Source: Candidatus Magasanikbacteria bacterium CG1_02_41_34 (GTDB taxonomy: Bacteria; Patescibacteriota; Patescibacteriia; Magasanikbacterales; UBA922). Taken from it: a stretch of DNA of 64,000 nucleotides. The notes beneath the pieces are model-generated. The model had not been told where the DNA came from. It did no database searches and was given only the letters and a program-made list of their open reading frames with translations. Location of the stretch: the NCBI GenBank assembly GCA_001871445.1, contig MNVD01000014.1:28776-92775 (forward strand), written 5' to 3'. How positions within the stretch are numbered: position 1 is the stretch's first letter; each line of letters opens with the position of its first letter. Positions 10,371 to 56,327 of the stretch are shown in pieces. Made by a program: the position numbers and the translations under genes.

Positions 10371-11561
<1,191 letters not shown>

Positions 11562-24077: not shown

Positions 24078-25172
24078 ATGAAAGAGCACTTACAAGCATT
24101 ATTAGAAAAGATTACGTCCACGTGGGCGCTTTTGGATATTGATGGACAAAAGGAAGAGTTGCAAAAATTGGAACAGGATATGCAAGCAGAAGGGTTTTGG
24201 AATGATACCGAGCAGGCTACCAAGATCAGTAAGCGTCATGAAGAATTGAAATCAGAAATTGATACGTGGCAATTACTTCAAGATGAAGTAGAAGGGCTCC
24301 TCAGTTTGAGTAAAGAATTGGAAGAGTCGCCCGATGAGGACATGGAAGCTGAAATTGATCAAAAAACAGAAAGTCTCGAAAAACAATTTGAAAAACTCGA
24401 ATTTATTCTACTCTTTGACGGAAAGCATGATAGAGACAATGCGCTTGTTACTATTCAAGCGGGGAGTGGTGGTACGGAAGCGCAAGATTGGGCTGAGATG
24501 CTTGAGAGAATGATTTTGCGATATGTAGAGAAAAAGGGATGGAAGGCAACATTGCTAGATGAATCAAAAGGTGCAGAAGCCGGCATAAAGTCAGCAACAG
24601 TTGAAGTGACTGGGCGATATGCTTTTGGGCATTTGAAAAGTGAACATGGAACACATCGGCTCGTTCGTCTTTCTCCTTTTGACGCAGAAGGGATGCGACA
24701 CACGTCTTTTGCATCGATAGAAGTCATTCCAGAAATGGAGACTGGTGATGCGGTGGTGATTGATCCAAAAGAGTTACGTGTCGACACATTTATGGCTGGA
24801 GGAAAAGGGGGGCAGAGTGTGAACACCACATATTCTGCTGTTCGTATTGTACATGTTCCTACGGGTATTACCGTACAATGTCAAAATGAACGATCGCAAG
24901 TTCAAAATAAAGAAAGCGCCATGCGTGTCCTTCAGGCAAAGTTGCAAAAGGTGCAGGAGGATCAAGAAGAGGCGGAGCGATTGAAACTTCGTGGCGAGCA
25001 CAAAAGTCCAGAGTGGGGAAATCAGATTCGTAATTATGTATTGCATCCATACCATCTAGTAAAAGATGTTCGTACAAAATATGAAACAGCAGATGATGAG
25101 CGTGTGTTGAATGGGGAGATTGATGATTTTATTGAAGCCTATTTGCGATGGATAAAATCACAAAACATGTAA
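24078..25172 (+). CDS. prfB: Peptide chain release factor 2.
   Basis: SPF tripeptide (RLSPFDAEG) and GGQ motif (GGKGGQSVNTT). One continuous 364-aa frame with no internal programmed frameshift. Confidence 0.85.
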   Translation: MKEHLQALLEKITSTWALLDIDGQKEELQKLEQDMQAEGFWNDTEQATKISKRHEELKSEIDTWQLLQDEVEGLLSLSKELEESPDEDMEAEIDQKTESLEKQFEKLEFILLFDGKHDRDNALVTIQAGSGGTEAQDWAEMLERMILRYVEKKGWKATLLDESKGAEAGIKSATVEVTGRYAFGHLKSEHGTHRLVRLSPFDAEGMRHTSFASIEVIPEMETGDAVVIDPKELRVDTFMAGGKGGQSVNTTYSAVRIVHVPTGITVQCQNERSQVQNKESAMRVLQAKLQKVQEDQEEAERLKLRGEHKSPEWGNQIRNYVLHPYHLVKDVRTKYETADDERVLNGEIDDFIEAYLRWIKSQNM

Positions 25173-25189
25173 CACGTAACAATTGTTAT

Positions 25190-25798
25190 ATGAACGTTAT
25201 TGATAAAAAACAACTAGACATTTCATCTCTTGCCCAAGCATTATTTGCCGGACAGACCATTGTCTATCCCACAGAAACATGTTACGGGCTTGGGTGTGAT
25301 GCGACAAATCAATTGGCTGTTGATACAATTTTTGATATTAAAAAAAGACAACGCAATAAACCCGTGTTGGTTGTCGCGCATGATCTTTCTGTGATGCTTG
25401 AACATGTATTTGATTCAGAAACACTTTTTGAAATAGAAGAAAAATATTGGCCAGGACCACTCACTGTTGTGACCAAGGTTCGTCTAGATTCAACCCTTGC
25501 AAAAGGCGTGATCGCTGAAGATGGAACGGTAGCATTTCGTATTACAGAGCACCCCATCGCGGCAGCACTCTGCCAGGCAATAAACGGACCTCTTGTTTCT
25601 ACTTCTGCAAATATTTCTACACACGAAAGTCCGTATGATATCAAGAACGTACTTGCTATGTTTGATCATGAACTCGTGCAGCCTGATATTGTCATTGATG
25701 GAGGGAAGCTTTCACACGAAAGCCCATCGACTATTGTGAGAATTCATGAAGATGGTACACTGGAAGTTCTTCGCGAGGGAGAAATTATTCTACATTAA
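25190..25798 (+). CDS. tsaC: L-threonylcarbamoyladenylate synthase (YrdC/Sua5/TsaC family).
   Basis: YPTETCYGLGCDA, KKRQRNKPVLVVAHD. Start set at the MNVID downstream of the prfB stop. Confidence 0.8.
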   Translation: MNVIDKKQLDISSLAQALFAGQTIVYPTETCYGLGCDATNQLAVDTIFDIKKRQRNKPVLVVAHDLSVMLEHVFDSETLFEIEEKYWPGPLTVVTKVRLDSTLAKGVIAEDGTVAFRITEHPIAAALCQAINGPLVSTSANISTHESPYDIKNVLAMFDHELVQPDIVIDGGKLSHESPSTIVRIHEDGTLEVLREGEIILH

Positions 25799-32613: not shown

Positions 32614-33459
32614 ATGGCAGAATCGCCAAATCCAAAACGAATAACTATTGGACAAAAGGTTGGTGTGACCTTTATGTTTTTGTTTGCATTTTTGGCACTT
32701 GGCATGGGGGTATTGCAACTCCGTACAACAGTCTATGGACCTTTTGTGAGTCAGACTCGTTCAAAAGTCAGTGCGGCTGAACAAGCGCAATTGCAATTTG
32801 ATGAATCTCTCAAACTTCAGCGTATTGATACTGACAAAGATGGCTTGAATGATTTTGAAGAATTAAATTTTTATCAGACCAGTGCATATTTGCCAGATAC
32901 GGATTCAGATGGTATCAGTGATAAAAAAGAAATCAACGATGGAACAGATCCTCTTTGCCCAGAAGGAAAAGATTGTGGGCTCGGTGCTGATGGGACAAGT
33001 ACAGAAACAGTAGATGGTGCGACATTGGAAAACCCAATTTTTGATAAAGCATTTCAGACAAGTGGTAATATGTTGGGAGCGGGACAAACAGGGGAGGCGC
33101 CTAGTATATTGGATTTGAATGCATTACTCGGAGATCCAACGCAACTACGCGCTGCGCTTCTTGCCTCTGGTCAACTGAGTGCAGAAGAACTCGCACAGTT
33201 CAATGATGCTCAACTCATTGATCTTGCACAGAATGCACTCAAGTCTCAATCTGTCTCTACACAACAAACGCAAGCACCTGTTGCTGTCTCTACACAAACA
33301 GATGTGACAGTAGAACAACTGCAAGCATTGCTTGAAAAGCCAGATGAATTGCGTCAGCTTCTTATTACAACAGAAAAAATGACTAAAGAACAACTTGATC
33401 AAATAGATGATGCAACACTCATCTCGGTCACGAAGGACATTATTGCAAAAAATCGCTAG
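32614..33459 (+). CDS. Membrane-anchored protein with thrombospondin-type-3-like calcium-binding repeats.
   Basis: DTDKDGLNDFEE, DTDSDGISDKKEINDGTDP. Extended -10 TGgTATACT at 32589-32597. Start at MAESP. Confidence 0.45.
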   Translation: MAESPNPKRITIGQKVGVTFMFLFAFLALGMGVLQLRTTVYGPFVSQTRSKVSAAEQAQLQFDESLKLQRIDTDKDGLNDFEELNFYQTSAYLPDTDSDGISDKKEINDGTDPLCPEGKDCGLGADGTSTETVDGATLENPIFDKAFQTSGNMLGAGQTGEAPSILDLNALLGDPTQLRAALLASGQLSAEELAQFNDAQLIDLAQNALKSQSVSTQQTQAPVAVSTQTDVTVEQLQALLEKPDELRQLLITTEKMTKEQLDQIDDATLISVTKDIIAKNR

Positions 33460-33463
33460 ATCT

Positions 33464-43065: not shown

Positions 43066-43363
43066 GGCGGTCGCTCCTTGTCCCGACTGAGTCGGGACGG
43101 AAAGGGAAGGGTTGAGTTCGGACAGACGATGACACATCATCATTTCTCGGAACCCAATCCTTCTGTAGTGGAGGACGCCTTGTTGTTCTTCTCACACACC
43201 ATTATGTGATATCCCATATCCATATATGACATATAGGTAAAGGATACGATTGAAAAAGAACGAGATATATATTTCCCTCAGAAGAGAAACATTCCTCCAA
43301 ATTGAGCATAGTATAAAAAATATGATTTGTCAATATGTCAAGGGGATAACATTCTTCACGTAA

Positions 43364-43393
43364 CACGCCGTGCCTGCCGGCAGGCTGGTAACA
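43364..43393. repeat. Left copy of a 30-bp perfect inverted repeat containing the palindrome GCCTGCCGGCAGGC.
   Basis: cacgccgtgcctgccggcaggctggtaaca; its exact reverse complement lies at 44160-44189. Confidence 0.8.
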
Positions 43394-43588
43394 AGTTTGT
43401 AGCGCACGGGTTTGGTTTGCAAAACGACAGTCTTGGGTATGCAATGCTATCCATTATATATTTTTTTACCCTGTTAATACCTCCTTGTTACATGTTATGT
43501 GATTTGTGTTTCGTGAAGTTACGTGTATATTGACATGCCAGCCTAATTCCGACATACTAGATATATCTATACACCTAACTTCACACAT

Positions 43589-44053
43589 ATGGAGGAATCA
43601 ACCACAAAAAAACTTACCCTTGACGACAAAGTGGATATTCTTATAGAAAAAGTGGATGGGAATACCAAAAACATAGACTCTCTCACAGATACCCTTTCAG
43701 AATTTATGGGCTTTGTTCGGGATAACATGGCGACAAAAGATGATATTGAAGACCTTAGGAAAGAGGTAAAAGGTGATAGTGCTACCCTCAGGACAGAATT
43801 AAAAGGCGAGATGGCTGAGATGAAGGAAGAAATTGGGGACTTGCGTTTGGAGATGCAAGCGGGCTTTCGTGGCATAGAAAAGGAGTTAATGGACATCAAA
43901 GCATCGCTCGACCGTCTTGAGAAAAAAACACAAGAAGATGATGATGCAACAGTACAAGAAATCTTCCTTCTCAAAAAACGGGTCGCCCAGGTTGAGAAAG
44001 AATTAGTACTTCTCAAAAAGGATCAAAAACATCACGTAACACATAGCACGTAA
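43589..44053 (+). CDS. Small coiled-coil protein (154 aa).
   Basis: Heptad-like K/E/L-rich sequence. The last codons are encoded by the CACGTAACA repeat array. Flanked by the 30-bp inverted-repeat pair. Confidence 0.45.
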   Translation: MEESTTKKLTLDDKVDILIEKVDGNTKNIDSLTDTLSEFMGFVRDNMATKDDIEDLRKEVKGDSATLRTELKGEMAEMKEEIGDLRLEMQAGFRGIEKELMDIKASLDRLEKKTQEDDDATVQEIFLLKKRVAQVEKELVLLKKDQKHHVTHST

Positions 44054-44159
44054 CATGTAGCATGTAACATGTCTGTAATGCGTTAGTTGAGTGGCACACA
44101 GTGGTCTTGGATATGCAATGAACCCATTGTATATTTTTTGCTCTTGTTAGCTTCGACCA

Positions 44160-44189
44160 TGTTACCAGCCTGCCGGCAGGCACGGCGTG
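44160..44189. repeat. Right copy of the 30-bp inverted repeat.
   Basis: tgttaccagcctgccggcaggcacggcgtg is the reverse complement of 43364-43393. Confidence 0.8.
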
Positions 44190-44565
44190 CTAAGTGATAT
44201 GTGTATCGTGACATAGGATTTGCTTGTACATACATGAATGGAGTAACGAACGCAAGTTCGTTTGTTAGCGGCGAGTACCTTGCTAATAGACGAACTTGCG
44301 TTCGTCACTCCTGCAGTATGGTAGGAAATATTTTGATCTTGACTATGTCGAGACAGGATGATAGCACGTAGCACGTTTGTAAGGAGAAGGTCTTCCATAT
44401 GCAATTCTACCCATTGCATATTCACCCAAACCCATAGCTCCGACCTTGCTACATGTTTCGTGTTACGTGCTATGTGCTCCATGTTCCGTGTTATAAAATC
44501 TGTCCCCATTTCCCTCTACGCAAGTCAAAATTTGTGATATACTCTGTGTATATTTATCCTGTTCC

Positions 44566-47500
44566 ATGCTTGCACGGATAACACACTACAATCGAGCCTT
44601 TTTTTCGCTATGTAAGAAACTTCTCCCGAAAGGACGTGCGAAGTTTTTTGTATTGCCGGTTGTTGGTGCGATTGCAAGTATTGGTATTTTCGTGGTCGTC
44701 GATCCTGCACATGCACAGGGGTTTTTAGAAGATATCATAAATGGCATGATGGTCTTTTTTAGCTGGGTCATGTTTATTCTTGCGCGATTGTTTATTGGTA
44801 TTACGATTTTTGCTCTCAAGTTTTTTATAGAAGTCGCATCATACAACAATTTTATTAATACGCCTACCGTCAAGATCGGTTGGTTCCTTGTGCGTGATGT
44901 AGCAAATATGTTTTTTGTGGTACTGCTTCTCGTCATTGCCTTTGGGACGATCCTAGGCCTGGAGCAATATGAATGGAAAAAGACACTGATCAAGTTGATT
45001 CTTGCGGCAGTCTTTATCAATTTTTCCAACATGATCGCACAGCTCATCATTGATGTGGCGCATGTCTTTACTATTACCTTTGTCAATGCAATATCAGCGA
45101 CAGCGGGAGGTAATATTATTCAGTTGTTCAATATCGACTCGGTGTATAAAATCACCGGGGCAGACAAGCTCGGCGTAGGGGGGGATCTTAAAATAGAGGC
45201 ATTTGCCGCTTCGGTAGCGTCATTTTTGCTGGCACTCATCATGATGACGACGATGGGCGCGTTTGCGATCGTCATGGCGGCTCGCATGGTCATTTTATGG
45301 GTACTCATCATTTTGTCTCCTCTCGCCTATATTTTTCAAGTTATTCCCCAAACACAAAAGTATGCTCAAGAGTGGTGGAGTGAATTTACCAATCATGTCA
45401 TCGTCGCGCCAGTTATGGTGTTTTTTCTCTGGCTTGCGTTTGCGACACTCAATAGCTCCGTACCACAGCTTGATTTTGGAAGTGCTGGAGCAGAAGCGAC
45501 AAGCGTTATAGGGAGTGGGGCACAAGTCGTTGACGCGCAGAAGAAATTGAGTATTTCAGATGCAACGACCTGGGAGAATCTTGCGAGCTTTATGATTGCT
45601 ACGGTCTTTCTTATTATTGGTCTGAAAACTGTGCGGAATCTCGGTGTTGTTGCTGGTGGTTTGACCTCGAGTGCAACAGGATTTGTGAAGAATGTTGCGA
45701 CTATTGCGACGGGAATTACTGCTGCTCGTGCTGTTGGTAGATATGCAAAGAAGAAGGGTGATGAAAATTTTCTTCAGCCTGTACGTGAATTTGGTGATCG
45801 TGTCAAGAAACGTGTCAATATTGCCAGAGCAAAAGTGCCGTATTTACGAAAAATTCCGTTTATTGGGAGAATGGGTCAATTGCGTCGTCAAAAATTAAAT
45901 GAGGAACTCGACCGAAATAGTAAAATGACAGATGAAAATATTATTGATACTATAAGTCGAAAGGAAAATATAGGGACGTTGGATAGAATTGGAAATAAAT
46001 TTGGGTTTGGTATTGAGTCGTGGAAGAAAAAAAGATATAAGCTCGAAGCTGAATCTGATATTATACAAGCAGAAAAAGCAGAATCAAAACGAGAGCGTAA
46101 AGCAAAAGCTGCGGCTGCTTTTGCTGATAAAGCAAATAAAGTAATCAAAGAAAATGGCGGAGAAAAACAAATTGCAGCTGAAAAAGAAAAAGCGCTAAAC
46201 ACTTTTCGAAATGCTGAGGAGAATAAAGATGAGCTTGCTGAAGTTGGAGATGACTGGGCGAATGGAAAAGTGAATGCTGACGCCATGAAAGCGCAGGCAA
46301 TACGGACTCTCCAAGAGGAAACAGAAGAAATTTTGAAAGAAGGATTTGAGGCTACTGATGATGGTAAAAAATTGGAAGCCCCTGTAGCTGCTTTGCAGAC
46401 GCATCTTCAGGGTGTTACAGAAACGTATAAAACAGAATTTCAAAAATATTTGAATGGGCTTGCCGCAAAAGATTTGGAACCAATCATAGCAGATGATTTT
46501 ACTGATAAAGACAAACAAAAAATTGCTGATGCAAGAAAGGCTGATCCAACAAAACAGGATGCTGAAATTATACAAACATTAGTGCGTAATGGACAAATTG
46601 CTGTCGATCCTGAGAGTGAAACAGGAAAAGCGCTTCGTGAAGAATTTGAACAAACGACGACTGGCAAAGGAACTATGGCTGCTATTGCTGGTGTAAACAC
46701 TAACTTAGAAGCATCCCGTACTGCGAAACAGGTCGCGCTTGACGCGTATAAGAAAGAAAACGGTTCAAAAGCAGAAGAAAAAGCATTAGCAAAGTCTGGT
46801 TTTAAAGAGAGAGTCGCTAGTGCAAAGAAAAAAGTAATAAATGAAGAAAACGTAAAACGTCGAGAACAGGCAGAAAGGGCGTTTGGCGAAACAGAACCTG
46901 CAAAGAAGCTTGTAGCAAAGTCTCAAGAAAATATTCTTCAGTTAGCAAATGATATCGCTAAAGGTAAAACAAAATTGCCTGGAAATCCAGATCTCAAAAC
47001 ACGACAAGGTATTGCCGAGCGATTGCGTATGCAGGCAAAAACTATGGGTGCTGACAGACAAGAAGCCGAGAAAAAGCGAGCAGATGCTCAAATTGCTGGT
47101 ACATTACAGAAAACTGAATTTGGCCAAGCTATGATGATGCAGCAGGATATCGCAGAGAGGGCAGAAGCTGCTTCTAAAGATACGGCAGAGATATTTAAGA
47201 ATGAAAAAATTACCAAAGAACTCAAACATACAGCAGAATTGTTAGCCCAAAAAATGAAACTCGGGGGAGGCGAAGCTGCTGCGGCGATTGATAAAGCGTT
47301 GAAAAAAAATATATATGCTCAGTCTGCCGAGCAATCTCAAATACTCGAAAAGACTAAGTTTGATAGAGGACGACAAGACACATTGCTGAAAGAAGCTGCG
47401 AATGGGCTTGCTGTTGAGAAAAAAAATAATGGAGAGGCTACTCCTACTCAGGCTTTGATTCCTTATATAAAACGAGACATCGAAGCATTGAGCGGACAAG

Positions 47501-48813
47501 AAGCCGATGCTGCAGGAGCATATGCTCAAAAGTTATTGGCTCATATTTTGTATGATGCTTCTGCTGGAAAAATGACAGGAGAACAGCACGCTGCTCTTAT
47601 GACGACTGTTATGAGTCTTGCCAAAGGTGGATATCTGGACGATGCGGTAGGATCTGTGTTGAAAAATGTTGATAAGTTAGACACGGGCGTAATAACGGAA
47701 GATTCTGATGAAGGAAAACAAACCAAAAATTTGAAGACTATTTTTAACCAGTTGGGTATTTTGCAGAAAGATGCACAAGGTGCATGGATATACAATAGGA
47801 CCAACGCAGCACGATTGCAACAGCTTGTGGTGTCTGGTGGAGACGCTGCGCTTGTGAGTGACAATAAAATGATTAGTGATATCCAGCAACAAGCACAAAG
47901 AGATGGTAGCGTAAAACTCAAAAATGATCAGAAAATTGAAGCAGCTGATTCGTACCAAGCAATGCTTGAAAAGTTAAGTGCCGCGGGTATGTTGTTATCA
48001 GGCACCGTAGATAAATTCAAAGAAAAACTTGAGGCTTCACAAGAGTTTATGCAAGAAGGGGCAAGTTATTTCAAACGAGAGGCACTCAATACCAATCATC
48101 CTGAAGTCGGTGGTCATTTTAAATATGATGATGATCTTGGCATGTACCGCATGTCGACAGTAAAGGAAGCTGATGATTTGATGGCGGCAGAACAGGCAAA
48201 GAGAAAAGGAAAATTAGCAACACAAATTCATGGATTGGGAACAATTGGTTTGGTAGATGGTCAGTTGAAAGCTATTGATCGGCAGGCCGCGACTAGTATC
48301 TTGGAAGAATTGAAGTCTTCTCAGGCAACCAGACAAATGCCACAGAGAACTGTCAATCGTATGTTGGGGTATGAGCAAAATGAAGAGATGGCAACCGATG
48401 CACAGGGAAATGTGATAGTAGGAAAGAGTGACGCGTATATAGACAAAAATCATGGAAATTTTGATAATTATATGAAGAACATTGTTCTTCCTATGCTTCT
48501 TGCCAACTCTGAATCACTCAAGTACATCGCGAGAGAAAAGGCACAACATGTGGATACCATAAGTTCTGATCGTGGTATGGCTCGAATATCTATTGCTGGT
48601 CATATAACAGGAGAAACCAATAGCGCTTTATTGAAAGACGTTATTAGGTATGCAACAGAAAACGGACGTAACTTATTGAATGATGCTGATTTAACCACGT
48701 TGCGACGAGGTGTGGAAGCATCGGAGAAAAAGGAAGCTACGTTAGATAAGAGGGGAAGGGTAAGTAAGGCTGATCAAGAAGCAGAAGAGGAACGACAATC
48801 TCGCGAGTCTTGA
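44566..48813 (+). CDS. VirB6/TrbL-like polytopic membrane protein with a roughly 1000-aa K/E/A-rich coiled-coil C-terminal extension (1415 aa).
   Basis: Signal peptide (AHA-QG), then 6-8 hydrophobic helices over the first 400 aa, then a low-complexity charged alpha-helical tail. Extended -10 TGaTATACT at 44537-44545. Confidence 0.5.
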   Translation: MLARITHYNRAFFSLCKKLLPKGRAKFFVLPVVGAIASIGIFVVVDPAHAQGFLEDIINGMMVFFSWVMFILARLFIGITIFALKFFIEVASYNNFINTPTVKIGWFLVRDVANMFFVVLLLVIAFGTILGLEQYEWKKTLIKLILAAVFINFSNMIAQLIIDVAHVFTITFVNAISATAGGNIIQLFNIDSVYKITGADKLGVGGDLKIEAFAASVASFLLALIMMTTMGAFAIVMAARMVILWVLIILSPLAYIFQVIPQTQKYAQEWWSEFTNHVIVAPVMVFFLWLAFATLNSSVPQLDFGSAGAEATSVIGSGAQVVDAQKKLSISDATTWENLASFMIATVFLIIGLKTVRNLGVVAGGLTSSATGFVKNVATIATGITAARAVGRYAKKKGDENFLQPVREFGDRVKKRVNIARAKVPYLRKIPFIGRMGQLRRQKLNEELDRNSKMTDENIIDTISRKENIGTLDRIGNKFGFGIESWKKKRYKLEAESDIIQAEKAESKRERKAKAAAAFADKANKVIKENGGEKQIAAEKEKALNTFRNAEENKDELAEVGDDWANGKVNADAMKAQAIRTLQEETEEILKEGFEATDDGKKLEAPVAALQTHLQGVTETYKTEFQKYLNGLAAKDLEPIIADDFTDKDKQKIADARKADPTKQDAEIIQTLVRNGQIAVDPESETGKALREEFEQTTTGKGTMAAIAGVNTNLEASRTAKQVALDAYKKENGSKAEEKALAKSGFKERVASAKKKVINEENVKRREQAERAFGETEPAKKLVAKSQENILQLANDIAKGKTKLPGNPDLKTRQGIAERLRMQAKTMGADRQEAEKKRADAQIAGTLQKTEFGQAMMMQQDIAERAEAASKDTAEIFKNEKITKELKHTAELLAQKMKLGGGEAAAAIDKALKKNIYAQSAEQSQILEKTKFDRGRQDTLLKEAANGLAVEKKNNGEATPTQALIPYIKRDIEALSGQEADAAGAYAQKLLAHILYDASAGKMTGEQHAALMTTVMSLAKGGYLDDAVGSVLKNVDKLDTGVITEDSDEGKQTKNLKTIFNQLGILQKDAQGAWIYNRTNAARLQQLVVSGGDAALVSDNKMISDIQQQAQRDGSVKLKNDQKIEAADSYQAMLEKLSAAGMLLSGTVDKFKEKLEASQEFMQEGASYFKREALNTNHPEVGGHFKYDDDLGMYRMSTVKEADDLMAAEQAKRKGKLATQIHGLGTIGLVDGQLKAIDRQAATSILEELKSSQATRQMPQRTVNRMLGYEQNEEMATDAQGNVIVGKSDAYIDKNHGNFDNYMKNIVLPMLLANSESLKYIAREKAQHVDTISSDRGMARISIAGHITGETNSALLKDVIRYATENGRNLLNDADLTTLRRGVEASEKKEATLDKRGRVSKADQEAEEERQSRES

Positions 48814-48856: not shown

Positions 48857-50356
48857 ATGATGTTAGAAGAAAAACAATTTGAACAATTTCACACGAGTGA
48901 CTTTATAAAAAGTGTGGAGGCATTTCGTGCACTTGAACAATTTTTTGCAGGGCAAACTGTTGTTCGTTTTTCAGAAGATCCACAGTCATTCCCTGTCATG
49001 ATTCGTGATATTGCTGATATCGCAGATACCTATACAAAAGAAACGTCGGAAGCCTATCCGTTTGTCCAAGAAAAGAGTGTGCTGGAAATGTTTGATATGG
49101 ATACGGTCACCACATTTGTGAAGACATGGAATGCCTGGATTGCTTCATATACACAGATACCCGACACATCGTCAATTGAAGATCAGACGTATCGAGTGGT
49201 TTCTTCTGCCGACATGAATAATTTTGCAAAGAAGTGCGGTGTTGCTCCAGACAGTATCAATTTTTTGACTACCCAGTATGATGGCTTTTCCGATGTGGTA
49301 AAACAGAATATCTCACGTACATTTGGAGACGTTGAAAACAGTGGTGAGGATATGATAGCTCAGATAGAACTTCTTGCTGGATTTTTGAAAGTTTCTTCTA
49401 TACAAACATATTCGACAGATGAATTTAAAGCAGTACTTGCTGGAGATATTTCTACATACGAAGGACCTCGTCTTGCTGCTACGATTCGGTATATGCTCGA
49501 TAATGATGAGGGACTAGCGTTAAGTGCGATTGCGTATGAACATTTGCATGTGGTGGATATCTACAAAAAATCGACATATACTTGGGACGAAGCTTTTTAT
49601 CTGACGGCGTTGCTCCATGCACCGTTCATCCATTTCCGACGGTTGTATTGGGAATTTCAAGAATTTTGGCTGATGTTTTATTTCGTCAAGGCACAAATTG
49701 CTGGTGTTCCATTGACACATATTTTGCAAGACTATTTGTATCAAGAGACAGCGACACTCCTAGAGTATGCAGAAGAAAATATTTTTTTGATGAAGAGTCT
49801 TGATAAAAATAAGGAAATGTTGCCTCTTGGATTGGATGGAGAAGCCATTGCGCTCAGTGCTTTGTATAAGGATTACATGCTTCGATTGGGAGACAAATTC
49901 AATGATGGTTACCGAAGAGAAGAATATATCCAAGAGCATGTGGTACACGTGAAACACAAAGAATTATGGAAGCATGTTCTCAGAACAGTGTTGTATATCT
50001 ATAGCCATATAAAATCTGTAGATCTTATTGAAAAAAATAGGGGATCCGAACCGACAGAAAAAGAAATATATGACAATCAACTTCGACATCTCTTGACGTG
50101 GTGGATGGATGAAGATTTTTGGCAACTGATTGCAGACTTCTTTACAAAACCACACACGCCACCTGCTATTGTCCCCTTGCACGCAGTTATAGCACAGATT
50201 CAACAACACGAATCACTCGAAGATCCCAAAGTGCAAGATAAAGCTGTCCGATTCAACGAATTTTTGCGTGAGCAGGGTGTGTTAAAAGAGGAGCAAGATA
50301 TTGTTGTGTATAATGAACAGACAACGACATTTGAATGGAATAAAGATATTTTCTAA
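48857..50356 (+). CDS. Hypothetical cytoplasmic protein (499 aa) within the T4SS-like locus.
   Basis: Clean ORF; no NTP-binding or other motif recognised. Confidence 0.4.
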   Translation: MMLEEKQFEQFHTSDFIKSVEAFRALEQFFAGQTVVRFSEDPQSFPVMIRDIADIADTYTKETSEAYPFVQEKSVLEMFDMDTVTTFVKTWNAWIASYTQIPDTSSIEDQTYRVVSSADMNNFAKKCGVAPDSINFLTTQYDGFSDVVKQNISRTFGDVENSGEDMIAQIELLAGFLKVSSIQTYSTDEFKAVLAGDISTYEGPRLAATIRYMLDNDEGLALSAIAYEHLHVVDIYKKSTYTWDEAFYLTALLHAPFIHFRRLYWEFQEFWLMFYFVKAQIAGVPLTHILQDYLYQETATLLEYAEENIFLMKSLDKNKEMLPLGLDGEAIALSALYKDYMLRLGDKFNDGYRREEYIQEHVVHVKHKELWKHVLRTVLYIYSHIKSVDLIEKNRGSEPTEKEIYDNQLRHLLTWWMDEDFWQLIADFFTKPHTPPAIVPLHAVIAQIQQHESLEDPKVQDKAVRFNEFLREQGVLKEEQDIVVYNEQTTTFEWNKDIF

Positions 50357-50358
50357 CT

Positions 50359-51570
50359 ATGGCAGAGCCGACCGTCCTCATAAAAAAAGCCGATGGAACG
50401 AGCGAGCGAGTGCCGTTGTCTTTGCTTAGAAAAAAAACAAGCGAGAATACTACTCCACCAACCCCAAACAACCCCATACCCACAGAAGAAAAAATATCGC
50501 AACCTGCAACCAGTGATCAGAAACCAGTTTTAGACGTATCCTCAGAAAGTTCTGATGCAGCAGAACCAAAAGAATTTGTTCCACCCAACAGCGAACACCG
50601 TTCAGCACCCCAAACGCCAAATCCTGCACCCACAAAAAAACAAACATTTCTCACCGCACCACCAGACCACGACACGCCAAGACAGACAGACGTATCTTCA
50701 AAAAGCGATCTCCCCATGGAAGAATCACCACACGAACTCGCAACCACGACGCCTGTTTCTGATTACTTCACTGATCTTGCAAAAGCACATGAGTGGAACG
50801 AACGTGATCATAGATCTCCACTCGAAGAGACAATCAATCATGAAGATGTAACAAATCCTCTTTCAACGACGATGCCGTCTGCCCGGTTTGAGGATGTTAC
50901 TATGGTGACAAAAAAACTTTCATTTTCAATACCAGTAGATCTTGAAAGTCGATTGCATTCTCTGATACAGTCACGACTCAAAGATATCCGAAGTGATGAA
51001 CAAGTTATCGACTATGCGACACGTCCTACAGAACATGGTGGTCTTGCGCTCACGAGTGAACAGGCACAGGAGCTCATACAAGTAATTCAGACGTCACTCG
51101 AGACATCTCGACAAGAACATATCCCCGCACCAAGAAGAACGGTCCAACAAACACCCTCAGCACAAAAAACATCGACAATTTTCGCAGACGCACCAACAAT
51201 GTCGCCATCTTCTGTGGGAAAAGACACGTCGTTTACAGACATTCATGCTCCAGAACCACTACAAAAAATTGTCGGGCCACTCGAGGAAATAGGGCAGATC
51301 ACATTGACTGATTTTCGTCGCTATGGAAAAGATCCCGCAAAAGCTACCGCAATACTGAAAGCGAAAATAACTGTTATCCGAGATGAATCTTACCTTGAGT
51401 TTCAAAAAGTAAAAGTGGCATGGACACAAAGTCCGCTGTATGGGCAGTATCTCTCACATATCGCACAGTCGCTCTCAGAAAAAACACCGCTTGCCATCTC
51501 AGACAGCGATGATATGTCTCCTGATGATATGAAAGAAATTGCCGTGTTTAGTGCGATGTTACGCATGTAA
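50359..51570 (+). CDS. Hypothetical Pro/Thr/Ser-rich protein (403 aa).
   Basis: Start 3 nt after the upstream stop. Low-complexity N-terminal half. The stop is embedded in a CACATAACA array. Confidence 0.4.
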   Translation: MAEPTVLIKKADGTSERVPLSLLRKKTSENTTPPTPNNPIPTEEKISQPATSDQKPVLDVSSESSDAAEPKEFVPPNSEHRSAPQTPNPAPTKKQTFLTAPPDHDTPRQTDVSSKSDLPMEESPHELATTTPVSDYFTDLAKAHEWNERDHRSPLEETINHEDVTNPLSTTMPSARFEDVTMVTKKLSFSIPVDLESRLHSLIQSRLKDIRSDEQVIDYATRPTEHGGLALTSEQAQELIQVIQTSLETSRQEHIPAPRRTVQQTPSAQKTSTIFADAPTMSPSSVGKDTSFTDIHAPEPLQKIVGPLEEIGQITLTDFRRYGKDPAKATAILKAKITVIRDESYLEFQKVKVAWTQSPLYGQYLSHIAQSLSEKTPLAISDSDDMSPDDMKEIAVFSAMLRM

Positions 51571-51728
51571 CACATAACACATAACACATAACAAGAGGCT
51601 GATTATGGGATTGGGATACTATGCAATGGATAACATCGCATGATAAAGATCCATATATTCCTCAGCCAACCCTCGCATTACAAACTTGTTACGTGCTACG
51701 TGCTACGTGCTACGTGTTACGTGAGTAT

Positions 51729-52163
51729 ATGCAACAATTCGTTGTTCCACAATTTATCGATGTTGAAGACAAGATTTTTGGTCCGATTACCACGAGGCAA
51801 TTTGTTATTTTACTTGCTGCCGGCATTACTATTTTCGGAACATATAGACTTGCCGATACGACATTGTTTATTTCGATTGCGGTTCTTGTAGGTATTATTG
51901 CGATCGTCTTTTCGTTTGTCAGAGTAAATGGTCAGGTGTTTCATGTTTTTCTTCTCAATATTATTCAGACCATGAAACGTCCAGGACTTCGTATTTGGCA
52001 CAAATCATATACAGACAAAGATTTGGAATATTTTATGCACAGTGGTGATGACGATGAAATTTCTGATCATGTAATCAAAAAGGCTGTGCACAAACAACAT
52101 ATTAAAGACCTGTCGCTGGTAGTAAATACAGGGGGATATTATAGACCTGATGAACATCTGTAG
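51729..52163 (+). CDS. PrgI/VirB3-like small membrane protein of type IV secretion systems.
   Basis: MQQFVVPQFIDVEDKIFGPITTRQFVILLAAG followed by two TM helices, which matches the PrgI-family N-terminus. The ORF track start at 51621 reads through the repeat array and is rejected. Confidence 0.5.
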   Translation: MQQFVVPQFIDVEDKIFGPITTRQFVILLAAGITIFGTYRLADTTLFISIAVLVGIIAIVFSFVRVNGQVFHVFLLNIIQTMKRPGLRIWHKSYTDKDLEYFMHSGDDDEISDHVIKKAVHKQHIKDLSLVVNTGGYYRPDEHL

Positions 52164-52223
52164 ATTGGGTGACCTTTCGTTCTGTTCATGATATACTTGA
52201 CACACTGCGTGTCAACGCATTGT

Positions 52224-52907
52224 ATGAAAGATACCAAAAAAAAAGCAAAGAAACATACGCGTCCTGCGACACAAACCTATCTTCCAATTGCGGAGATTCG
52301 AGATGGCGTTGTCGTATTGAAGGATGGAACGCTGAGAAAAGTGCTGATAACATCGAGCATAAATTTTGCATTAAAATCAGAAGATGAACAAAACGCGCTT
52401 ATTTCTTCGTATGTTAGCTTTCTCAATTCGCTTGAATTTCCTATACAGATTGTTGTACAGTCGCGTCGTTTGCAGATCAAGCCATATCTTGCAAAACTGG
52501 TAGAAAAAGAAAAAAAACAAACAAGTGAGTTGTTGCGAGTACAAATTGCCGATTATCGTGCCTTTGTGGAGGAGCTTGTAGATATCGGGCAGATCATGAC
52601 AAAACGGTTTTATGTGGTTGTTCCGTATGATTCATTATCAAACAGAAAAAAAGGTTTTTTTGCTCAATTTAAGGAAGTTTTGAAGCCTGCGTTCACGGTT
52701 CGACTAAAGGATGAACGATTTCAAAAGAGAAAAGAAGATTTGGAAGTACGTGTGCGTCAGGTGATGGGAGGTCTCGATGGCATGTCACTCCAGACCGTCG
52801 AGCTTGACACCGAGGCACTCATCGAGCTCTACTATATGGGCTACAATCCCGACATTGCCTTTGCCGAAAGCCTCGGAGATGTCGATGCATTGCAGATAGA
52901 CACATAA
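52224..52907 (+). CDS. VirB4/PrgJ/TraC-type conjugative ATPase, N-terminal domain, encoded as a separate ORF.
   Basis: YLPIAEIRDGVVVLKDGTLRKVLITSSINFALKSEDEQNALISSYVSFLNSLEFPIQIVVQS is the characteristic VirB4 N-terminal segment. Stop TAA at 52905-52907. Confidence 0.6.
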   Translation: MKDTKKKAKKHTRPATQTYLPIAEIRDGVVVLKDGTLRKVLITSSINFALKSEDEQNALISSYVSFLNSLEFPIQIVVQSRRLQIKPYLAKLVEKEKKQTSELLRVQIADYRAFVEELVDIGQIMTKRFYVVVPYDSLSNRKKGFFAQFKEVLKPAFTVRLKDERFQKRKEDLEVRVRQVMGGLDGMSLQTVELDTEALIELYYMGYNPDIAFAESLGDVDALQIDT

Positions 52908-52978
52908 CACGAATCACGTAACACATAGCACGTAACAATTCTTAAAAAATGTGTTATGTGCTACGTGATATGTGATTC
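52908..52978. repeat. 71-bp palindromic element built from CACGTAACA / CACATAACA repeats, separating the two VirB4 ORFs.
   Basis: Left arm cacgaatcacgtaacacatagcacgtaaca, AT-rich loop aattcttaaaaaat, right arm tgttatgtgctacgtgatatgtgattcgtg. About 26 of 30 arm positions are complementary. Confidence 0.7.
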
Positions 52979-52990
52979 GTGAAAAATAGT

Positions 52991-54859
52991 ATGCCATTCA
53001 AACCACTCACAAGAAAAACAGCCAAAAAAGAGCGTGGTCATGACCCGAAAAAGGATTTGACCAAGGATGATCTTATCACGCTCGAAGAAGAGCGGCTGTA
53101 TCGAGAGGGTACTGTAGCAATCAAAGATTTGATTGCACCATCCGCTTTTCGTGTAGAATCAAACTTTCTTCAGCTTGGTGAAGTTTTTTTGCGCACCATG
53201 TATGTCATTACGTATCCAAGATACATTTCTGTTGGGTGGAGTTCGCCAATTTTGAATTTGAATTCAACCATGGACCTCTCGATGTTTTTTTATCCTGTAG
53301 AATCTGCATTGATTCTCAAACAACTCAAGAAAAAAGTTGGTGCACTCCAAGCACAGTTATCAGGTGATGCAGAAAAAGGGGCTCCACGTGATCCTCTGAG
53401 AGAAACAGCACTTCGTGATATCGAGCAACTCCGTGATGATTTGACGCAAGGTATTGAACATTTTTTTCAATTTGCTTTTTATGTAACGATTTATGCAAAT
53501 GATAGAAAGGAACTTGATACGTTGACAGAAGATTTAGAAAATATTTTTGGCACAAGACTTATTTATACCAAAAATGTTCTGTTTCAGTCAGAACAAGGAT
53601 TCACCTCCACTATGCCGCTCGGGATTGATGATTTGATGGTGGCATTCAATATGAATTCGTCTCCTATTGCATCATCATTTCCATTTATGTCGTCAGAACT
53701 TACCAGTGACGATGGTATTCTCTACGGCATCAATCGGCACAATAATAGTTTGATTTTGTTTGATAGATTTTCACTCCAAAATGCGAACATGGTTGTCTTT
53801 GCAACGTCTGGTGCTGGAAAATCCTATGCTGTAAAGCTCGAAGTGTTGCGTAGTCTTATGATGGGGATCGATGTGATTGTTATCGACCCAGAACGTGAGT
53901 ACGAGCATCTTTCCGAAGCTGTAGGTGGCACATATATCAATATTTCGCTTGCTTCAGAAGGAAAGGTTAATCCGTTTGATTTGCCGCGTCCTGTTGGAGA
54001 ACAAGTGTCAACAGAAGATATCATTCGTAGTGCGGTCATCACGGCAAAAGGATTACTTCGTATCATGCTTGGCACGGTGACGGCGACAGAGGATTCTCTT
54101 CTTGACCGCGCTCTTCTCGAGGCATATGCCAAAAAAGATATTACCTCGTCATCTGACCTTGCGACAGTGGAGCCACCCATTATGCAGGATCTGCTCGATG
54201 TTCTCGAAGGTATAGATGGAGCAAGTGAATTGGTTATTAAACTGAGCAAATATACCGACGGGACCTTTGCAGGATTGTTCAATGCACCTACCAATGTGGA
54301 CGTGAATAATGCACTTGTTATATTCAGTGTCAGAGATCTTGAGGATGAATTACGTCCAATGGCGATTTATACGTTGGTAAATTATATTTGGAATATTGTA
54401 CGCAGTGAACGAAAAAAACGGTTGCTTATTATTGATGAAGCCTGGTGGCTCATGCAACATGAAGACAGTGCGAAGTTTATTTTTGCACTGGTAAAACGTT
54501 GTCGAAAGTATTATCTAGGCGTGACAACAATCACACAGGATGTCAATGATTTTTTGAGTTCTCAATATGGACAAGCGATTGTGACGAACTCTGCCTTACA
54601 ACTTTTGCTCCGACAGTCGCCAGCATCTATAGATATGATCCAAAAGACATTTTTGCTTACAGAAGGAGAAAAATATTTATTGCTTGAAGGAGCTGTAGGT
54701 GAAGGTATATTTTTTGCTGGATTAAAGCACGCAGCTATCAAAGTCGTTGCATCGTATACAGAGGATCAGCTCATTACGTCAGATCCAGAGCAACTTATGC
54801 AGATAGAACAAGCCAAAAAAGATTTTGAACAACAAGTTATTAGCCCTGGTAGATCATAA
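52991..54859 (+). CDS. VirB4/PrgJ/TraC-type type IV secretion ATPase, ATPase domain.
   Basis: Walker A FATSGAGKSY and Walker B LLIIDEAWWLM (the DEAW signature). Preceded by the VirB4 linker region P.AF....LQLGEVFLRTMYVITYP. Alternative GTG start at 52979. Confidence 0.8.
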   Translation: MPFKPLTRKTAKKERGHDPKKDLTKDDLITLEEERLYREGTVAIKDLIAPSAFRVESNFLQLGEVFLRTMYVITYPRYISVGWSSPILNLNSTMDLSMFFYPVESALILKQLKKKVGALQAQLSGDAEKGAPRDPLRETALRDIEQLRDDLTQGIEHFFQFAFYVTIYANDRKELDTLTEDLENIFGTRLIYTKNVLFQSEQGFTSTMPLGIDDLMVAFNMNSSPIASSFPFMSSELTSDDGILYGINRHNNSLILFDRFSLQNANMVVFATSGAGKSYAVKLEVLRSLMMGIDVIVIDPEREYEHLSEAVGGTYINISLASEGKVNPFDLPRPVGEQVSTEDIIRSAVITAKGLLRIMLGTVTATEDSLLDRALLEAYAKKDITSSSDLATVEPPIMQDLLDVLEGIDGASELVIKLSKYTDGTFAGLFNAPTNVDVNNALVIFSVRDLEDELRPMAIYTLVNYIWNIVRSERKKRLLIIDEAWWLMQHEDSAKFIFALVKRCRKYYLGVTTITQDVNDFLSSQYGQAIVTNSALQLLLRQSPASIDMIQKTFLLTEGEKYLLLEGAVGEGIFFAGLKHAAIKVVASYTEDQLITSDPEQLMQIEQAKKDFEQQVISPGRS

Positions 54860-54870
54860 CCTTTGCATGT

Positions 54871-55467
54871 ATGTTGGATATTCGTCAACGTCTGTTTCTC
54901 ATTGTAAGTATTGCTGTTCTACTTGTCTTGGCAATTGTCTTGAGTATTCTGGGAATAAAAAAATACAATGATACCACGTCTGTGAAGCTAGATATTATAC
55001 AGCAAGAATCTGGTAGTGGTGAAGAGCAGCCTCAAATGTATGATGCATCACTCAATTTGCAGCCAGTCATAGGTGATCCTCAGCAGCTTGGAAGTGTACT
55101 TGCAAATGAAGACGAAACCGAACGTTTTGTACGGCAGCGTTCCATTGATTTTGTAGAACGTTTTCTTTCTTATTCCAATCAATCACGGAATACTCATATT
55201 CGTGATGTACTTCCTCTCGTCACACCTGAGATGGCGTCTTGGATAGAGACGCAGTCGCAACACTATAGTGATATCTATCAAGGTAGTACCACACAGGTCA
55301 TCGTGAGTCGTATCGAAAATGTGACAGACCAGACTGCCTCAGTTCATGTAGAAGCACAACAACATCTTGAATCAAAAGATATCGATGAACGGGTATATCA
55401 TGTGGGTCGTGTAGAACTCGTCGAGACAAATGGTGTATGGTATGTCGATGGGTTGTATTGGGAATAA
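54871..55467 (+). CDS. Membrane-anchored hypothetical protein; candidate VirB8/PrgL-like component.
   Basis: One N-terminal TM helix plus a compact C-terminal domain. Assignment is by size, topology and position only. Confidence 0.3.
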   Translation: MLDIRQRLFLIVSIAVLLVLAIVLSILGIKKYNDTTSVKLDIIQQESGSGEEQPQMYDASLNLQPVIGDPQQLGSVLANEDETERFVRQRSIDFVERFLSYSNQSRNTHIRDVLPLVTPEMASWIETQSQHYSDIYQGSTTQVIVSRIENVTDQTASVHVEAQQHLESKDIDERVYHVGRVELVETNGVWYVDGLYWE

Positions 55468-55494
55468 CCATGTATGGTATTTGTAAGGGGGGCT

Positions 55495-56190
55495 ATGAAA
55501 ACAGTGAAAGACTACCTCTTTCCTGTTTTTTGTTTGTCATGTGGAATAGAAGGGTTCTGGATGTGTGACAATTGTTTTAGTTTTATAGATATCACCACAC
55601 AATTGTTTTGTCCATTGTGTCATGAGAAAACATCTGCTGGGGAAGTGTGTCTCGTATGTATGAAAAAACAATTAACATCATTTCTTACGCAGCATATCGC
55701 AAGCACTATGTATGAAGAATCAGGACGTATTGGAAAAATTATTCATACATTAAAGTACGATTTTGCCGACGACAGCATGCCTGTGATTGAAAAGATTATT
55801 CAAACATGGGTAAAAAAACATAGAGATCATCTCCCAGACGTCGATGTGATTATTCCTGTCCCACTGCACAAAAAACGCTATGCCGAACGAGGATTCAACC
55901 AGGCAATATTGCTTGCTCGTGTGTTAGCAAAAGAGGGGGAAATTCCTATTGATGAAAACATACTTACACGTTCAAGAAATACGCCACATCAAGCTAGGCT
56001 CGATAGAGAAGGAAGGCTGCAGAATGTTAAGGAGGCATTCCATGTATTCACACTAGACAGTATACAAGGCAAACGTGTCTTATTAGTAGATGATGTGTAT
56101 ACCACAGGAGCCACTATGCAGACCTGTGCTGAGGCGCTTCTTGCTTCTGGGGCATCTTCTGTATATGGATGGACGTTGGCTCGTGGGTAA
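55495..56190 (+). CDS. comFC: ComF-family competence protein (ComFC; double zinc ribbon plus phosphoribosyltransferase domain).
   Basis: N-terminal CLSCG...CDNC...CPLC...CLVC and the PRTase motif VLLVDDVYTTGATM. RBS AAGGGGGG. Confidence 0.75.
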   Translation: MKTVKDYLFPVFCLSCGIEGFWMCDNCFSFIDITTQLFCPLCHEKTSAGEVCLVCMKKQLTSFLTQHIASTMYEESGRIGKIIHTLKYDFADDSMPVIEKIIQTWVKKHRDHLPDVDVIIPVPLHKKRYAERGFNQAILLARVLAKEGEIPIDENILTRSRNTPHQARLDREGRLQNVKEAFHVFTLDSIQGKRVLLVDDVYTTGATMQTCAEALLASGASSVYGWTLARG

Positions 56191-56240
56191 GTGTTTTTTT
56201 GTATAAAAAAAACAAAGTTGTATATGACTTTGTTTTTTTG

Positions 56241-56327
56241 CGGAGAGTGGAGGATTCGAACCCCCGGTCCTCTTTCAAGGACGACAGTTTAGTAAACTGC
56301 TGCTATAGACCGCTCAGCCAACTCTCC
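56241..56327 (-). tRNA. Class II tRNA (long variable arm), Ser-type; anticodon reads ACU in my fold, which is unusual.
   Basis: GGAGAGTTGGCTGAGCGGTCTATAGCAGCAGTTTACTAAACTGTCGTCCTTGAAAGAGGACCGGGGGTTCGAATCCTCCACTCTCCG. Discriminator G, T-loop TTCGAAT. Anticodon stem GCAGT/ACTGT with loop TTACTAA. Confidence 0.55.

Follow-up and report, generated by a model that had tools for sequence, protein, structure and literature searches.

Whether the VirB4 ATPase of a type IV secretion system (T4SS) has been broken in two is the question raised by a 64,000-nucleotide stretch of the genome of Candidatus Magasanikbacteria bacterium CG1_02_41_34 (assembly GCA_001871445.1, contig MNVD01000014.1, positions 28,776 to 92,775), hereafter called the window. 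In this locus the N-terminal domain and the ATPase domain of VirB4 are encoded by two consecutive open reading frames (ORFs), and the spacer between them is occupied by a long palindrome made of tandem heptamers. A sequence-only reading of the locus had proposed that insertion of this repeat split or inactivated the gene, that the two ORFs form a genuine two-subunit VirB4, or that the palindrome is an attenuator or pause site between the domains. From a comparison of the junction with those of related genomes, we consider it very probable that a VirB4 encoded by two genes is the normal state, and that the palindrome is a later arrival in the spacer, where its folding may be what makes it tolerable.

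Separate trsD and virB4 genes in the relatives

We retrieved 80 genome loci at 55-96% identity and measured the junction wherever a locus contained both genes (individual loci are designated below by L numbers). The gene for the VirB4 N-domain protein, trsD, and the virB4 gene were separate and adjacent, with trsD directly upstream, in all 82 loci, corresponding to 61 distinct junctions. The spacer between them ranged from 1 bp (TAAtATG) to 472 bp, being no longer than 13 bp at 28 of the 61 junctions, 14-59 bp at 14 and at least 60 bp at 19; a 1-bp spacer, TAAtATG or TAGtATG, was found at a dozen or more distinct junctions. In the window the true spacer, from the stop at 52907 to the ATG at 52991, is 83 bp. 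Frame offsets of 0, 1 and 2 between trsD and virB4 all occur among the orthologous junctions. Relatives free of the repeat still carry two genes, with a 28-bp spacer in L007 (90% identity) and a 26-bp spacer in L003 and L044 (82%).

The same picture was obtained at the protein level. When 5.8 billion proteins were searched with the N-domain ORF, 7,746 homologues were obtained; the best 120 of them (69-93% identity), which come from Candidatus Magasanikbacteria and other Patescibacteria, are without exception stand-alone proteins of 216-252 aa. Among the best 150 representatives of clusters at 50% identity, 149 are 132-443 aa long and a single one, P0242, is a fused protein of 898 aa. Both ORFs of the window are 55-98% identical to their orthologues across the clade and show no signs of decay. 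Taken together, these comparisons indicate that the two-gene TrsD and VirB4 layout is the ancestral, functional and normal form, older than the repeat, in agreement with the proposal of a genuine two-subunit VirB4.

This arrangement is already in the literature and is not new. A 2025 study of Patescibacteria T4SS describes TrsD as adjoining VirB4 across Patescibacteria and as remotely homologous to the N-terminal part of VirB4 (PMC12102498). In that work TrsD is the most abundant component of the Patescibacteria T4SS, with 2,272 homologues, 1,664 of them associated with VirB4; that of Ca. Southlakia epibionticum ML1 is given as essential, and the pGO1-type conjugation system of monoderm bacteria serves as the prototype (PMC12102498).

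Three explanations that would make the junction abnormal were weighed against these data. If a recent insertion of the palindrome had split or inactivated an intact virB4, its precise excision would restore a protein of about 850 aa, and the frame arithmetic does fit: the two ORF starts are 791 nt apart, an offset of +2, and the 71 bp assigned to the element are likewise 2 modulo 3. Fused homologues, such as the 898-aa P0242, also exist. A one-in-three frame coincidence is nevertheless unremarkable, and the TAA stop lies outside the 71 bp, so deletion of 52908-52978 keeps the stop and fuses no ORFs; the arithmetic of the sequence-only reading is thus correct and the single ORF expected from it is not. 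In each of the 82 loci a stop closes the first ORF and the second has its own start, even where the element is missing and the spacer is 1-28 bp; all three offsets occur, and the high identity and undecayed state of both ORFs speak against inactivation as well. Two ORFs without the repeat in L007 and in L003 and L044, the very observation that the sequence-only reading had named as fatal to an insertion, lead us to reject the split, which we hold to be extremely improbable. Programmed recoding, by readthrough, frameshifting or bypass of the hairpin, could in principle join the two ORFs into one VirB4 polypeptide, and a strong hairpin right after a stop codon does resemble some recoding signals. 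The frame relation is not conserved, however, the heptamer array puts TAA or TAG in every frame, the hairpin is wholly missing in some relatives and the downstream ORF has its own conserved ATG start, which leaves recoding with hardly any probability. The least probable of the three is a sequencing or assembly artefact: palindromes are prone to mis-assembly, but the 111-bp junction of the window recurs without a single difference in two further records, GCA_002792975.1 (PFPI01000009.1) and the JGI metagenome 3300004088, the exact TrsD protein is found on 17 contigs, and related elements stand at the same site in the independent metagenome-assembled genomes L006 and L001/L002.

Two proteins colinear with single-chain VirB4

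The upstream ORF (52188-52907, 239 aa) ends at the TAA of 52905-52907, as the sequence-only reading had described. Its gene start is placed at ATG 52224, the identical 227-aa product being called on 17 public contigs, and its orthologues are 227-228 aa long. Precomputed tables assign PF26593 to the exact 227-aa product and to all 120 best of the 7,746 homologues; a local Pfam scan of the N-domain ORF left PF26593 unreported and gave only a sub-threshold match to DUF3900. The ORF matches the N-termini of four NCBIfam profiles, three for full-length VirB4-family proteins and one for stand-alone TrsD/TraD, over roughly their first 90-240 positions and always under the full-length cut-offs; in NF045971 it covers positions 9-94. 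With 28.7 bits against the cut-off of 200 of the TrsD/TraD profile NF041427, the protein falls outside that narrower subfamily.

Given that a sequence search of the PDB with the N-domain ORF found no match even at E = 10, a fold search was used. An AlphaFold2 model built from 38 homologues has a mean predicted local distance difference test score of 81, and all 14 best Foldseek matches in the PDB are TrwK/VirB4 chains of plasmid R388, with a probability of 0.99-1.00, E-values from 1e-3 to 5e-2 (13 of the 14 below 1e-2) and query-normalised template-modelling (TM) scores of about 0.43-0.51. Together with the NCBIfam matches and the alignment to P0242 given below, the predicted fold identifies the upstream ORF as a homologue of the N-terminal portion of VirB4, in keeping with its original reading as the VirB4 N-terminal segment.

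The downstream ORF (52979-54859) spans 626 aa. Of the two starts that had been suggested for it, GTG 52979 and ATG 52991, the latter is taken as the true one, giving a product of 622 aa whose N-terminus, MPFKP (MAFxP in some relatives), is kept among relatives; the ORF itself and its Walker A and B motifs were borne out. NF045971 matches this ORF with 337.5 bits (cut-off 325) over profile positions 169-728 of 752. The match begins at position 169, the N-terminal part being encoded by the separate upstream ORF, and without roughly the first 170 positions of full-length VirB4 profiles the protein does not qualify as a single-polypeptide VirB4. Pfam reports P-loop_TraG at 2.5e-27 (96 bits against a threshold of 25.8) plus matches to AAA_10 and DUF87, the structure of a VirB4 C-terminal domain (PDB 4AG5) matches at 5.8e-49, and the gene stands in a T4SS locus with PrgI/VirB3 and VirB6/TrbL genes.

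Along the fused homologue P0242, residues 11-223 align with the N-domain ORF and residues 322-890 with the ATPase ORF; the linker between them, of about 98 aa, is not represented in the window proteins. The alignments and the model show the two ORFs to be colinear with single-chain VirB4, and the break between trsD and virB4 falls in a variable linker of the rare fused forms.

The palindrome at the junction

The inverted arms reported earlier are real, and their limits differ slightly from those given: the left arm occupies 52908-52937 and the right arm 52952-52981, 30 nt each and 87% complementary, so that the loop is 14 rather than 13 nt and the element ends at 52981 rather than 52978. Both arms are tandem heptamers, CACRTAR on the left (CACATAA CACGAAT CACGTAA CACATAG CACGTAA CA) and YTAYGTG on the right (TGTTATG TGCTACG TGATATG TGATTCG TG). 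The array begins at 52901, which places the TAA stop of trsD inside the first heptamer, CACATAA, and the palindrome takes up the whole spacer save its last 9 nt. The predicted folding energy is -38.9 kcal/mol for the plus strand (z -7.3) and -40.1 kcal/mol for the minus strand (z -7.6); none of 200 shuffled sequences was as stable.

A promoter and terminator scan found no consensus and no terminator in the trsD-virB4 spacer. The stem is followed by AAAAAUAGU, and as a U-tract is missing it does not qualify as a Rho-independent terminator. At gathering thresholds only tRNAs pass in an Rfam scan of the window; in E-value mode, over 43200-44600 and 51450-53100, only eukaryotic microRNA precursors were returned, at 20-31 bits against thresholds of 80-195, which amounts to recognition of a long hairpin.

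A family of heptamer-array repeats

The sequence-only reading had noticed that the units of the element recur in the locus, and a search for further copies confirmed this. The window has 15 occurrences of the motif CACRTAACA where 1.09 are expected, a count reached by none of 100 shuffled sequences, and at least five more copies of the element are present in the 64 kb (Table 1). In an alignment of the junction copy with ten other family copies (A1) the arms are conserved, and in the longer copies these arms enclose a core of about 100 nt bearing a small conserved hairpin, ATATGCAATG...CATTGCATAT. The full-length copy upstream of prgI has an orthologue at L006 8387-8551, and the equivalent spacer of L003 is 2 bp. 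The copy at 44028..44210 supplies, with its left arm, the last seven codons and the stop (HHVTHST plus stop) of the ORF at 43589-44053.

Orthologous copies stand at the trsD-virB4 junction of L006 (96% identity; 182 bp, with core) and of L001/L002 (93%; 99 bp). CACRTAR arrays are absent from L007 and L044, and the junction element is limited to the closest relatives, at 93% identity or above. Because the orthologous copies of the closest relatives are longer, the window copy, which consists of arms and a 14-nt loop, looks like a core-deleted derivative. This distribution indicates that the palindrome is a late, lineage-specific occupant of the spacer, secondary to the two-gene layout. The prgI-trsD spacer is similarly variable, holding a repeat copy in L001, 60 bp of ordinary sequence in the window and a different palindrome in L006.

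A metagenome scan for CACRTARCACRTARCACRTAACA (CACRTAR-CACRTAR-CACRTAA-CA) found at least 120 contigs with three consecutive units, about a third of them with complete hairpins whose loops are 8-200 nt long. Among the matches listed, the metagenome hairpins have ends of the AAT|CAY...RTG|ATT type or close variants. A search of the literature on this repeat sequence, and on palindromic repeats, heptamer repeats and MITEs (miniature inverted-repeat transposable elements) of the candidate phyla radiation, found no description of it.

The repeat copies have further features of their own. The ORF at 43589-44053 encodes a 154-aa coiled coil and has repeat copies on both sides, and the whole block 43345-44500 is missing from the 82% relative L044. 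A perfect 12-bp palindrome, CCTGCCGGCAGG, whose copies have about 8 nt of flank in common, sits inside heptamer elements in opposite orientations, at 43373-43384 and 44169-44180 of the window (2 against 0.02 expected) and also in the trsD-virB4 element of L006, and resembles a mini-insertion in the repeat. A second, unrelated palindromic family, GGAGTRACGARCG...CGYTCGTYACTCC, whose stem measures about 22 bp, is found at 44239-44312 of the window, at L006 9006-9066 and in the core of the copy at L006 8387-8551; it occupies intergenic T4SS spacers in the window and in the 96% relative, and Rfam gave only sub-threshold microRNA-precursor matches for it.

Other units in the same spacer of other Magasanikbacteria

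In other Magasanikbacteria the trsD-virB4 spacer holds inverted arrays too, each with a genome-specific unit of 7-9 nt: TTGTAAA in L009, TACGAAA in L010, TACTAAT in L032, L036 and L037, AAATAACG in L049, AGCACTT in L052 and CTGAGAA in L080. In most of these loci (not L052 and L080) the units recur elsewhere in the locus, some of them at neighbouring T4SS junctions. Thirteen of the 18 spacers of 60-300 bp, that of the window included, are strong hairpins with z of -4.6 or lower. Since different lineages have different units in the same architecture at the same junction, the tight junctions of this T4SS operon appear to have been colonised independently and repeatedly by such elements.

Inverted-array junctions were noted in L009, L010, L032, L036, L037, L049, L052, L068, L079 and L080, near locus position 10,650-10,900. 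The L068 unit, AACCCTA, is the complement of a telomere-like TTAGGGT-type unit. A G+C-rich palindromic repeat, GTCATTC(C/T)..GCGAA(A/G)GC..GAATGAC, fills the same spacer in L014 (7133-7238) and L027 (10673-10845). Stops in all three frames were considered as a general design and discarded: they are a property of the CACRTAA units and not of the units of other lineages, such as TACGAAA.

Possible roles of the hairpin

Considering that the ancestral junction has no Shine-Dalgarno motif and often a 1-bp distance between stop and start, we propose that virB4 translation is coupled to termination on trsD, as the short (1-13 nt) stop-start junctions of many relatives without such a motif would suggest. 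The palindrome is predicted to fold as one enclosing hairpin whose stem follows the TAA directly and ends 9 nt before the ATG, so that stop and start would remain neighbours. A ribosome that terminates at the TAA, where the stem begins, would melt the lower stem and free the start region of virB4, and coupling of this kind would keep TrsD and VirB4 in a proportion of roughly 1:1; the hairpin may in addition cause partial attenuation or be a site of mRNA processing. Unwinding of a stem by a terminating ribosome is the classical form of translational coupling. The element may thus be tolerated in the spacer since its folding preserves the proximity of stop and start.

Several observations are consistent with this proposal. 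Shine-Dalgarno-like motifs precede 5 of the 52 ORFs of at least 150 aa in the window, which corresponds to the 9.9% background when starts are approximated as the first ATG, and the genome appears to initiate translation without Shine-Dalgarno pairing. At 11 of 13 long palindromic junctions one enclosing helix is the fold of minimum energy, with 2-22 nt left unpaired (9 in the window). Where metagenomic hairpins have co-oriented flanking ORFs, the upstream stop lies between -10 and +25 nt of the hairpin start in 28 of 29 cases, often at +7, +14 or +21, that is, at the TAA of heptamer 1, 2 or 3; units of the CACRTAA / TTAYGTG kind carry a stop on one arm and an ATG or GTG on the other. As a separate observation, many starts in the window are preceded by a T/A-rich sequence ending in TATG.

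Other results weigh against a palindrome tolerated through folding and coupling. The clustering of stops in 28 of 29 cases is overstated by a search window of only 100 nt around each hairpin. Strand asymmetry could reveal selection at the RNA level, considering that G.U pairs on one strand are A.C mismatches on the other, and folding shows no strand preference: relative to the orientation of the flanking genes, the better fold is on the sense strand for 13 hairpins and on the antisense strand for 19. These counts give no sign of selection on mRNA structure, and a role at the level of DNA (cruciform, protein-binding heptamers or mobility) is just as possible. The long spacers of L017, L038, L084 and L085 are not palindromic, so that a hairpin is not required for a long spacer. 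No target-site duplication was found for the family, nor an associated transposase among the ten locus proteins scanned. Finally, the coupling role is one that we infer, and the Shine-Dalgarno count was made on first-ATG starts.

Two other roles have to be set beside coupling. The hairpin may act on the transcript, by partial termination or attenuation, as an RNase III-type processing site or by stabilising the 3' end, with unequal amounts of TrsD and VirB4 mRNA as the result. Hairpins of the repetitive extragenic palindromic (REP) type act on transcripts in such ways in Escherichia coli operons, the stem is very stable for an element inside an operon, and in most metagenomic examples the family lies between co-oriented genes. 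Against this, the stem lacks a U-tract, the terminator scan was silent, the 9 nt after the stem have no room or consensus for a virB4 promoter, the 1-bp spacers of relatives mark co-transcription as ancestral, and the missing strand bias counts here too; a transcript role is possible in our view, though doubtful. A purely DNA-level element, whose heptamers serve as iteron-like, transposase or recombinase binding sites and which is a mobile MITE-like or recombination site placed only incidentally between trsD and virB4, would accommodate the strand-symmetric folding. Copies that come and go at the spacers of close relatives, such as the prgI-trsD copy of L001, are in line with it, as are the AAT|CAY...RTG|ATT or near-variant ends of the metagenome matches listed and the private unit of each lineage within a common architecture. 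On the other hand, the empty-site spacers of L003 and L007 have no sequence in common with the filled sites, and a target-site duplication is accordingly not definable; no REP-associated tyrosine transposase (RAYT) or other transposase was present among the ten locus proteins scanned, a scan not aimed at finding them in the window as a whole; and the junction copies in the window, in L006 and in L001 are orthologues and do not represent independent insertions. A role confined to DNA seems rather unlikely to us. We return, then, to a late palindrome tolerated in the spacer of a normal two-gene VirB4, and add a broader suggestion that we regard as speculative: inverted arrays of 7-9-nt units would be a widespread, apparently undescribed class of intergenic element in Magasanikbacteria and related Patescibacteria that colonises T4SS stop-start junctions and, in genomes lacking Shine-Dalgarno sequences, is kept by hairpin-dependent coupling, the CACRTAR units donating TAA stops and ATG or GTG starts.

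The surrounding locus

The coordinates of the junction, the repeat copies and the neighbouring genes are given in Table 1. The order of the T4SS genes in the window is that of L003, and the remainder of the locus agrees with the published account of the Patescibacteria T4SS (PMC12102498).

Table 1. Features of the trsD-virB4 locus and copies of the heptamer-array repeat, by position in the window
Feature	Positions	Strand	Description
Minimal repeat copy	25159..25193		Three heptamers ending TAA plus short hairpin; between stop 25170-25172 and ATG 25191
Repeat copy	43354..43520		Nested CCTGCCGGCAGG palindrome inside
Repeat copy	44028..44210		Left arm shares the 23-mer CACGTAACACATAGCACGTAACA with 52915-52937
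Repeat copy	44358..44495		Directly upstream of the virB6/trbL-like gene
virB6/trbL-like gene	44566-48813		TrbL/VirB6
Unassigned gene	48857-50356		
Unassigned gene	50359-51570		
Full-length repeat copy	51564..51725		Heptamer arms plus ~100-nt core; fills spacer from stop of gene 50359-51570 to prgI start
prgI / virB3-like gene	51729-52163	+	144 aa; Pfam PrgI 1.7e-11
trsD-like gene	52224..52907	+	227 aa; stand-alone VirB4 N-terminal-domain protein; Pfam PF26593 'TraC-like'
Heptamer-array palindrome	52901..52981		Arms plus 14-nt loop, between trsD and virB4
Unpaired 9 nt, AAAAATAGT	52982..52990	+	Stem base to virB4 ATG; without Shine-Dalgarno motif
virB4 (TrsE-type) ATPase gene	52991..54859	+	622 aa; Walker A GAGKS, Walker B LLIIDEAW
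Unassigned gene	54871-55467		
ComFC-like gene	55474-56190		Double zinc ribbon plus phosphoribosyltransferase domain

The ComFC-like gene stands two genes 3' of virB4 in the window and in relatives, which hints at a link between the T4SS and DNA uptake. An ORF of 3,014 aa (33407-42451) lies directly upstream of the repeat-rich region and the T4SS locus. On the minus strand, at 56240-56327, ARAGORN predicts a tRNA-Ser with anticodon ACT (A34), adjoining tRNA-Ser GCT and TGA; Rfam scores it as a tRNA at 51.8 bits, and an unmodified-looking A34 seryl tRNA is unusual in bacteria. Among the fetched records, L011, L012, L014, L016, L019-L021 and many others are titled 'uncultured Gammaproteobacteria bacterium' and carry a typical Magasanikbacteria T4SS locus, so the label is probably wrong.

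For annotation, the pair should be entered as trsD (VirB4 N-domain protein) and virB4, the upstream ORF being no pseudogene fragment and the ATPase not truncated, and this Magasanikbacteria genome should be regarded as having an intact T4SS. An intact system matters, as the machine is essential in the one cultivated Patescibacteria strain tested (PMC12102498). A palindrome between the halves of a familiar protein invites a split-gene reading, and comparison with relatives settles the question fast. The heptamer-array palindromes themselves are a modest lead: they show that spacers turn over rapidly and in a lineage-specific way in genomes that are streamlined in other respects, and they offer a testable case of structure-bridged translational coupling.

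Comparison with known systems

The pair is most readily compared with TrsD and TrsE (VirB4) of the pGO1/pSK41-type conjugation systems of mating-pair formation class MPF-FATA and with the TrsD-VirB4 pair already known from Patescibacteria (PMC12102498). In these systems, as in the window, a homologue of the N-terminal part, of about 200-230 aa, is encoded directly 5' of an ATPase that lacks that part, and the two genes are set among prgI/virB3 and virB6/trbL-like genes. The window protein is a distant relative of staphylococcal TrsD (28.7 bits, cut-off 200), belongs to PF26593 and differs further in being followed by a spacer that contains a repeat. Compared with full-length VirB4/TrwK of R388 and with the fused Patescibacteria VirB4 P0242, the window products are colinear, the N-domain fold fitting TrwK (TM about 0.5, query-normalised) and the ATPase fitting both 4AG5 and TrwK; the differences are that the window has two polypeptides instead of one and lacks the linker of about 98 aa of P0242.

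Regarding the repeat, two known structures were considered and set aside. TIGR (Tas-associated) arrays have 36-nt units of edge and loop repeats with two spacers (PMC12045711), an anatomy that the contiguous heptamers of the window, which have no spacers, do not share. An integron attC site was rejected on reading the sequence, as the arms are RYRYAAC / GTTRYRY, not RYYYAAC / GTTRRRY, and the elements stand between essential operon genes.

Tandem heptamers are familiar from elsewhere. Cyanobacterial short tandemly repeated repetitive (STRR) sequences are intergenic heptanucleotide tandem repeats. Like these and the TAACTGA repeats of Beggiatoaceae (PMC4679880), the window family has genome-specific 7-nt tandem units in intergenic positions of many operons. 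All but one of the 169 repeat sets of Beggiatoaceae are reported to be direct (PMC4679880); in the window, by contrast, a pair of opposed arrays forms a hairpin, in many cases enclosing a core of about 100 nt.

The closest likeness is to REP elements and bacterial interspersed mosaic elements (BIMEs) and to MITEs such as Correia, RUP, BOX and ERIC, which are likewise short, imperfect, structured palindromes, intergenic and often within operons, and variable between close relatives. With six copies of a short imperfect palindrome in 64 kb, the family resembles REPs in its intergenic multiplicity. Most REPs are tagged by GTAG/CGTC heads (PMC3733652), and the ends found here, CAC(G/A)...(C/T)GTG, contain neither GTAG nor CGTC. 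Terminal inverted repeats (the 30-nt arms) and insertion polymorphism, with copies differing among the window, L001, L006, L007 and L044, agree with a MITE. What sets the window family apart from both groups is that its arms consist of tandem 7-nt units, with TAA on one arm and ATG or GTG on the other, and that it often provides the stop codon of its neighbour. It therefore looks like a new repeat family within the familiar REP/MITE-like intergenic palindromes, unusual for its tandem-heptamer arms.

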